Below are positions 45,970 to 46,085 of a stretch of DNA of 64,000 nt, piece after piece (the first letter of the stretch is position 1; the number at the start of each line of letters is the position of its first letter). Below the pieces are notes generated by a model that saw only the letters and a program-made list of their open reading frames with translations, was not told where the DNA came from and ran no database searches. Position numbers and translations under genes: made by a program. Where the stretch lies: IMG/VR virus record IMGVR_UViG_3300020179_001470, positions 1-64,000 of that record; one strand, given 5' to 3'. The stretch comes from a virus.

Positions 45970-46085
45970 TTTCATCAGAGGTAAAACTTTGGTGGGGGTG
46001 GTTGTACACCCCATAGTGAATCCTGAATAAACAGGGTGGAATTTATCTGGAGATTAACTTCTCACTCACTAAATACCTTTTATTT
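45970..46085 (+). ncRNA. Putative tracrRNA (split copy of the reRNA scaffold)
   Basis: Paralogous to 48324-48429 with covarying stems; loop GTTGTA and 3' ATACCTTT are both complementary to the repeat's 3' half. Confidence 0.8.

Follow-up and report, generated by a model that had tools for sequence, protein, structure and literature searches.

Here we describe a structured RNA element at positions 45970-46085 of a phage genome fragment which, with a probability of about 80%, is the tracrRNA-type scaffold used by a type V CRISPR system of the Cas12f family and contacts its crRNA at two sites. In the mechanism that we propose, the scaffold RNA would hold the crRNA at two places within the final 15 nt of the repeat: the anti-repeat AUACCUUU would pair with AAAGGURU, and the invariant loop of the second scaffold hairpin, GUUGUA, would pair with UACAAC directly 5' of the spacer to form a pseudoknot. 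This free-standing element (copy 1) has a paralogue (copy 2) at the 3' end of the nuclease gene. We show the sequences, the predicted folds, their covariation and the anatomy of the wider family, and infer transcription, processing, nuclease binding and DNA cleavage by this system.

The window, i.e. the whole stretch of DNA analysed, comprises the first 64,000 bases of a 72.9-kb IMG/VR virus record. CheckV completeness of that record is 22%, and relatives of the locus (designated here by L numbers) were found on contigs of 250-340 kb, so that the source is probably a jumbo phage. The runs containing the stretch are lake-water metagenomes, with no RNA run listed among them, and the species-genome collection contains one close relative, a 248-kb contig that is binned as Flavobacteriaceae and holds two scaffold copies; the carrier is probably a large freshwater phage with a Bacteroidota host. 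On the + strand the locus reads, in order, promoter-like motif, copy 1, a 58-nt link, CRISPR array, nuclease gene, copy 2 and putative guide. A megablast search of 40000-52000 against the phage GenBank collection returned zero matches. Neither Cas1 (PF01867) nor the Y1 transposase TnpA (PF01797) is present in the 72.9-kb record, which is about 22% complete (the phage itself may still carry either). No transposon ends were found and the nuclease gene is single-copy within this incomplete record, so that neither TnpA or ends nor the near-identical copies expected of a mobile element were seen there. A tRNA- or tmRNA-like sequence lies approximately 400 nt upstream of the locus in a 310-kb relative (L002:1960-2100).

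The gene at 46975-48405 (+ strand) encodes a 476-aa RNA-guided nuclease of the Cas12f/TnpB family, as judged from Pfam, NCBIfam and PDB matches. Pfam matches above cut-offs were PF07282 (Cas12f1-like TNB; 6e-14) and PF01385 (OrfB_IS605; 2e-9), and the NCBIfam guided_TnpB model matched at 4e-44. Assignment to the Cas12f2 subtype was ruled out, the NCBIfam Cas12f2 model giving 108 bits against a cut-off of 450. The top PDB matches were 9NZO/9NZR (Al3Cas12f; E 1e-56, 196 bits, residues 78-414). Twenty aligned homologues all keep D233, E331 and D416 of the RuvC domain as well as the zinc-finger cysteines C380/C383/C401/C406. The protein is thus built as a compact effector whose RuvC is split as in TnpB (D-E-D) and whose TNB domain has a zinc finger. 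The CRISPR array (46141-46894) lies beside this effector, as in type V-F systems, and ends 80 nt before the gene.

Copy 1 (45970-46082, + strand) was delineated by RNAfold, by a covariance-model match of 120.8 bits and by covariation. Its predicted fold comprises hairpin 1 (45973-45994), hairpin 2 (45995-46012, with the loop GUUGUA at 46001-46006) and a three-hairpin multibranch (46014-46071); the anti-repeat follows at 46073-46080, where an earlier note on this DNA had correctly placed ATACCTTT. The fold has a predicted energy of -37.8 kcal/mol (z -3.82), and none of 200 shuffled sequences was equally stable (RNAfold). Upstream, a promoter-like motif of the Bacteroidota type, TTTG-N19-TAcaTTTG, was read from the sequence at 45896-45926 (+ strand). 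The motif TTTG-N17-23-TAnnTTTG, which we take to be the Bacteroidota promoter consensus, was found, with its end 33-43 nt before the scaffold, at 12 of 46 distinct copies, compared with 13 of 920 random 110-nt windows, and all 12 copies that bear it lie outside the nuclease gene (upstream or downstream), none overlapping the gene 3' end. Given this enrichment and the Flavobacteriaceae-binned relative, copy 1 is probably driven by its own Bacteroidota-type promoter, from which transcription would possibly continue into the array. The segment between the promoter-like motif and hairpin 1 (45939-45969) is conserved and contains an inverted repeat, TTGAA...TTCAA, which has no counterpart in copy 2 and could be an additional 5' tracrRNA stem.

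The earlier note had set the two copies side by side and held that compensatory changes between them define the fold. Both forms of hairpin 2 are present as it described, GGGGTG-GTTGTA-CACCCC at 45995-46012 and GGGTTG-GTTGTA-CAACCC at 48344-48361 (2 matches, with 0.00 expected from 100 shuffles), and CTCACTCACTAA is indeed shared by both copies, at 46061-46072 and 48410-48421 (0.24 expected, and 0 of 100 shuffles with two). ATAGTGA is likewise the same in both, and the predicted folds bear out the strands named for hairpin 1, CATCAGAG/CTTTGGTG in copy 1 versus CATCAC/GTGATG in copy 2. A repeat search aligned 45990-46080 with 48339-48429 at 70% identity over 91 nt. The predicted architecture common to both copies consists of two 5' hairpins and a three-hairpin multibranch (P3a, P3b and P3c) closed by UAGUGA/UCACUA. 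Copy 2 together with its half repeat occupies 48324-48445 on the + strand (RNAfold, covariance-model match of 117.9 bits, covariation), with hairpin 1 at 48327-48343, hairpin 2 at 48344-48361 (loop 48350-48355) and the multibranch at 48363-48420. In a hand comparison of the folds, four pairs differ on both sides with pairing kept (pair six in hairpin 1, pair four in hairpin 2, pair one in P3a and pair four in P3c) and none is disrupted; several other stem differences are one-sided and wobble-compatible, and the remaining differences fall in loops. Chance similarity of the copies was ruled out by the pattern searches, the repeat search and covariation.

A covariance model (R1) was built from the two window copies and the two copies of L002, a 76%-identical locus that lies on a 310-kb viral contig and has the same layout as the window, and was searched against 55 sources, namely the window and 54 loci encoding nuclease relatives. 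With an E limit of 1 it returned 72 matches; at least one match at E<=0.0014 was obtained in 45 of the 55 sources, the ten sources with no R1 match being mostly short contigs or distant relatives. No significant R1 match was obtained in the more distant TnpB/Cas12f-like loci searched, and a cmscan of 44000-50000 against Rfam 15 (E up to 1) identified no family, giving one chance-level snoRNA match on the minus strand inside the gene. The matches were compiled into a model-fitted alignment of 54 distinct rows (A4), a procedure that favours structure and that included weak and partial matches, among them four at E 0.067-0.7 that look spurious. In A4, 91.8% of cells pair, double changes occur at 21 of 23 pairs, and the score was reached by 0 of 500 shuffles (counts that are not probabilities, since the sequences are related); when partners were slid by 1-3 columns, pairing fell to 34-48%. 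RNAalifold applied to A4 independently predicted hairpin 2, P3, P3a and P3c, with double changes at 16 of 17 pairs. A plain MAFFT alignment that was not structure-fitted (A5; 35 distinct copies running into a half repeat) gave 95.8% paired cells, double changes at 10 of 23 pairs (5 of 6 in hairpin 2), 0 of 500 shuffles and slid controls of 24-52%. The covariance-model check across homologous loci, which the earlier note had called for, supports the fold, and with it the proposal that both copies are under selection for structure.

The array itself (+ strand) consists of 11 full 36-nt repeats and one 5'-truncated unit at 46814-46828 which keeps only AAAGGTATATACAAC, the last 15 nt of the repeat; most spacers are approximately 29-30 nt. 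With the 12 array units and the unit fused to copy 2, the locus holds 13 repeat units: TACAAC is terminal in all 13 and AAAGGTRT is found in 12, the remaining unit having AAAGGTAC. From unit to unit and from locus to locus, the repeat is near-constant in its 3' 15 nt, while the 5' 21 nt are variable or missing; the 15-mer alone is retained in copy 2, in the unit at 46814-46828 and in units of L002, L062 and L063, and the repeats of L087-type relatives are 14 nt long. Exactly three elements make up this 15-mer: the duplex site (8 nt), a single spacer nucleotide and the pseudoknot site (6 nt). The full 36-nt repeat is predicted to fold on itself as a hairpin (-10.9 kcal/mol), its 5' arm, GUUGUA and AUACCU, mimicking the hairpin-2 loop and anti-repeat of the tracrRNA. 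The predicted pairing energy of the repeat arms (-12.9 kcal/mol) is stronger than those of the two tracr sites (-7.8 and -4.1 kcal/mol), so that pairing in trans would compete with the cis hairpin until the repeat is cut. The full repeat also resembles the 3' hairpin and pseudoknot strand of an omegaRNA.

The two proposed contacts differ in how strongly they covary. For the anti-repeat:repeat duplex, which lies in cis in A5, 99.4% of cells are paired and double changes occur at 3 of 5 pairs. In split loci the two strands change together: L067 has AAACTCTTCA facing TGAAGGGTTT, with two positions compensated relative to the window, L005 has CAACC facing GGTTG, L070 has GTACC facing GGTAC and L097 has CTAC facing GTAG; in L086 a wobble pair has become a C-G pair. 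Both the duplex site and the overall fold receive good support from this comparative evidence. The GUUGUA:UACAAC pseudoknot is 97.6% paired in A5 and nearly invariant, with a double change at 1 of 6 pairs in a single row (L083), 9 wobble-compatible one-sided cells and 5 of 210 cells unpaired. L005, which is related to L083, combines the loop GTTGTG with the repeat end CACAAC in both copies. The loop variant GTTGTT (L003, L004 and L072) is uncompensated, the repeat end being unchanged. The minimal repeats of 14-15 nt, which consist of the two pairing sites only, support the pseudoknot, which is plausible, weakly covarying and consistent with the family plan as predicted here. Of the two-site pairing put forward beforehand, the duplex thus stands and covaries; the pseudoknot is the weaker part, drawing on conservation, the minimal repeats and one covarying lineage (L005/L083). 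Pairing of the tracrRNA with two repeat sites, including a pseudoknot ahead of the guide, as is characteristic of Cas12f, was in these terms found in silico.

It is very unlikely, in our estimation, that the match between the loop and the repeat end reflects shared ancestry with no pseudoknot at all, the UACAAC of the repeat then pairing with its own 5' GUUGUA in the pre-crRNA hairpin or aiding spacer integration, and the loop being kept for contact with the protein. The repeat termini are self-complementary and predicted to fold, the two ends of the L070 repeat covary mutually (GGTGT...ACACC) and not with the loop, which remains GTTGTA, and the pseudoknot pairs scarcely vary, all of which would agree with such an origin. 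Half repeats that lack the 5' arm nevertheless keep the guide-adjacent UACAAC, as seen in copy 2, at 46814-46828 and in L087 with its 14-nt repeats. For the upstream array of L005, CACAAC is matched better by the tracr loop GTTGTG than by the repeat's own 5' GGTGTA, and 9 of the 14 departures from the commonest pair in A5 are wobble-compatible. A pseudoknot preceding the guide is moreover general to Cas12 and TnpB guides, according to Nakagawa et al. 2023 (PMC10097598). The same study describes guide, pseudoknot and stem as common to the TnpB omegaRNA and all Cas12 guides, and equates the pseudoknot with repeat:anti-repeat 1 and the following stem with repeat:anti-repeat 2 of the Cas12f sgRNA, in agreement with the earlier statement that two contacts including a pseudoknot are typical of Cas12f/TnpB guides.

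The label of two tracrRNA copies, by contrast, does not hold for copy 2. Its scaffold (48324-48431) overlaps the nuclease gene at 48324-48405, covering its final 27 codons plus the stop codon, and is joined via a three-base loop to AAAGGTGTATACAAC (48431-48445), the last 15 nt of the repeat. The resulting cis anti-repeat:repeat hairpin (48422-48438, + strand) is followed by the pseudoknot partner UACAAC (48440-48445, + strand) and then by unique sequence, a putative fixed guide (48446-48475, + strand), after which no second repeat follows. Homologues of 57-63% identity are 447-461 aa long, with query coverage of 89-95%; conservation of the protein therefore does not extend to the C-terminal tail that copy 2 encodes. 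Because it is fused in cis to the 15-nt half repeat and a unique guide, copy 2 would serve as a natural single guide; judged by its sequence it is a cis-fused, omegaRNA-like putative single guide and not a second tracrRNA. Its scaffold would derive from the 3' end of the nuclease mRNA, as for a TnpB omegaRNA, and the RNA would be cut out of that mRNA; in a study of TnpB the guide RNA is reportedly cut from the nuclease mRNA. In L062 (L062:4454-4540), two spacers of 20 and 27 nt come after copy 2, the first ending at a second half repeat and the second at a full repeat; as the window has a single guide there, the downstream mini-array has been gained or lost between close strains.

Whether both copies are live can be weighed from the same comparison. 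One of them could be a functionless, decaying duplicate, its compensatory differences being leftovers of drift, and there are observations in keeping with this: the fused guide has no exact match in viral_contigs and no second site in the 72.9-kb record at <=3 mismatches (hence no self-targeting was seen there), L067 (90% identity) has no 3' copy, and the fold of copy 2 (-33.5 kcal/mol) has a z-score of only -1.61, with 14 of 200 shuffles equally stable (RNAfold). In run X20, which may be an RNA run, a contig of a relative approximately 87% alike follows the nuclease gene and diverges at 48334, ten bases into copy 2; this relative appears to be without the 3' scaffold. Decay is nonetheless unlikely, since both copy types have orthologues in several loci with all helices kept, there are no broken pairs between the copies, and the guide after copy 2 is different in every relative, like live spacers. 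As both guides and spacers differ between relatives, the guide position of copy 2 turns over as spacers do.

The window and L062, whose nucleases are 98% identical, have zero spacers in common. The spacer at 46177-46206 is matched by contigs in three DNA runs, and that at 46506-46535 by a contig in one run; in each case the contigs then diverge from the window on both sides. These contigs come from the same lake metagenomes, and they are likely to be protospacers in co-occurring genomes. They show unrelated DNA around the spacer sequence, and in one run their depth is above that of the phage. On the spacer-identical strand the 5' flanks of the two protospacers end in TTTA and TTTG, which suggests, from these two protospacers only, a 5' TTTR PAM, and these flanks fit the strand and polarity that the predicted pairing would require. 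Spacer 1 had no exact match in viral_contigs.

The arrangement of scaffolds among relatives bears on how copy 1 would be expressed. In most relatives every scaffold copy is followed, after 2-26 nt, by a repeat (half or full), then a spacer and more repeats; in most of them, then, the scaffold leads an array. In the window, copy 1 is separated from the first repeat by the 58-nt link (46083-46140, + strand), which is near-identical in L002 and L062 while spacers differ, forms a weak hairpin involving the anti-repeat (CCUUUUAUUUUUAAAUAAGG), and carries TTCACAAT approximately 31 nt before the first repeat. In related split loci TTCACAAC occupies the position of this motif, and TTCACAAT may represent a half repeat in decay, accompanied by a fossil spacer. 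Copy 1 might, instead of being a separate trans-acting RNA, be the 5' leader of a single scaffold-plus-array transcript whose first half repeat has decayed, acting mainly in cis or only once that transcript is processed, a possibility that we regard as real though short of even odds. The direct continuity, in most relatives, of the scaffold with a repeat (half or full) and the array behind it speaks for this, as do the conservation of the link, with TTCACAAT where a half repeat would sit, and the lack, by eye, of a second promoter-like motif between copy 1 and the array. However, the degenerate link segment matches the half repeat poorly (6 of 12 positions mismatched), and a single scaffold would have to serve 12 array units, so that pairing in trans would be needed whatever the primary transcript.

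Scaffold position varies with relatedness of the nuclease. Relatives of >=74% identity with enough sequence (L002, L062-L066 and L068) have both an upstream copy and a copy overlapping the gene 3' end; L067 is as given above, and in L069 no 3' copy was seen on a contig ending approximately 420 nt beyond the match. At 57-63% identity the upstream copy alone is present, and in relatives of 39-54% identity the copies lie mostly downstream of the gene, with up to four in tandem (L087 and L088). In L087 (1992-3262; also in L088) four tandem cassettes stand downstream of a 49%-identical nuclease gene. Each consists of a scaffold of approximately 90 nt, GTTGT or ATTGT, and a 14-nt mini-repeat; spacers of 16-29 nt alternate with more 14-nt mini-repeats, and ATGCGGGGGAC recurs after the cassettes. 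A scaffold tree was calculated from 48 distinct rows over 108 columns, leaving out seven rows (four weak matches, two partial matches and L107). The copies overlapping the 3' end form one clade (SH-aLRT 94), which groups with the L063 and L066 copies that are fused and lie upstream (99), all nested within a mostly-upstream clade (96). The tree is unrooted and short, and thus carries no claim as to which scaffold copy is older.

A broader reading of these arrangements, which we put forward tentatively and with less than even confidence, is that in a jumbo-phage clade of Cas12f the tracr scaffold would be the leader of an array, normally fused to its first repeat, and that such cassettes duplicate and move between sites upstream of the gene, overlapping its 3' end and in tandem downstream. 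Switching between omegaRNA-like and split forms would then be frequent and reversible, repeats of 14-15 nt with two sites would suffice, and both guide states would be used by one protein in one locus.

Among known systems, the best solved-structure match is Al3Cas12f from Alistipes sp. (9NZO/9NZR; E 1e-56), and the window shares with it and with type V-F a compact nuclease adjoining a CRISPR array and a long structured tracrRNA. Type V-F effectors are further characterised by homodimer action on a single guide RNA and by cutting of double-stranded DNA that depends on a 5' PAM. The Al3Cas12f family has guide RNAs of 129-156 nt and T-rich PAMs, according to PMC13186708, compared with a scaffold of approximately 110-140 nt and the TTTR suggested by two protospacers here. 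The similarity is distant and concerns the protein. Unlike Al3Cas12f and type V-F, the window system is phage-borne and has a second, cis-fused scaffold overlapping the gene 3' end. That overlap recalls the omegaRNA of ISDra2 TnpB, a guide RNA that overlaps the 3' end of the nuclease ORF, and copy 2 places scaffold, pseudoknot partner and guide in one predicted RNA, with anti-repeat-like and repeat-like strands linked by a short loop. Strands so linked are called a 'natural sgRNA' in PMC10097598. The window differs from ISDra2 in that copy 2 ends in a CRISPR half repeat and is accompanied by a CRISPR array and a split scaffold.

Two further groups resemble the locus in using fused guides. According to Altae-Tran et al. 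2023 (PMC10691335), a half repeat can fuse with the tracrRNA so that an omegaRNA re-emerges, its 3' end being the same as the repeat, fused units duplicate into arrays, and the Cas12f1 and V-U40-43 branch leads to nuclease-dead, sigma-factor-linked proteins; for dCas12f-sigmaE single guides, PMC13472631 reports tandem scaffold-plus-guide RNAs downstream of dCas12f, shown experimentally. Both descriptions resemble what is seen in copy 2 and in L087 with its four tandem cassettes. Those published fusion cases are nuclease-dead, sigma-factor-linked and bacterial, whereas the catalytic residues of the window nuclease are intact and the locus is phage-borne; its fused scaffolds coexist with ordinary arrays, and it has relatives with 14-nt repeats. 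The other group is TranC. These systems (attributed to Jin et al., Cell 2025) are transposon-CRISPR intermediates according to papers that cite the work, and reportedly use both kinds of guide, split and fused. As far as the citing papers go, split and fused guides for one TnpB-like nuclease are shared with the window, but the window protein groups with Cas12f by sequence and is longer than a typical TnpB, and the locus has the split form and the fused form on two paralogous scaffolds that are physically separate. The RNA architecture is the known Cas12f/TnpB plan of guide, pseudoknot and stem; what sets this case apart is an intact nuclease, carriage by a phage, a pair of paralogous scaffolds in one locus that would serve a fused guide as well as an ordinary array, and relatives whose repeats are 14 nt long.

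The analysis provides a covariation-backed guide RNA structure and pairing scheme for an uncharacterised 476-aa phage nuclease of the Cas12f type. It is reasonable, on the predicted structures, to derive a compact sgRNA design from the two copies as proposed earlier; copy 2 is in effect the natural single-guide version, which makes the system directly testable as a compact editor. The clade spans fused, split and tandem arrangements and offers a natural series for the passage from omegaRNA to tracrRNA plus crRNA, or for re-fusion, and it can show the minimal functional length of a repeat. If the scaffold is indeed a mobile array leader across this clade, the window would be a live snapshot of guide-form switching in catalytically intact nucleases.
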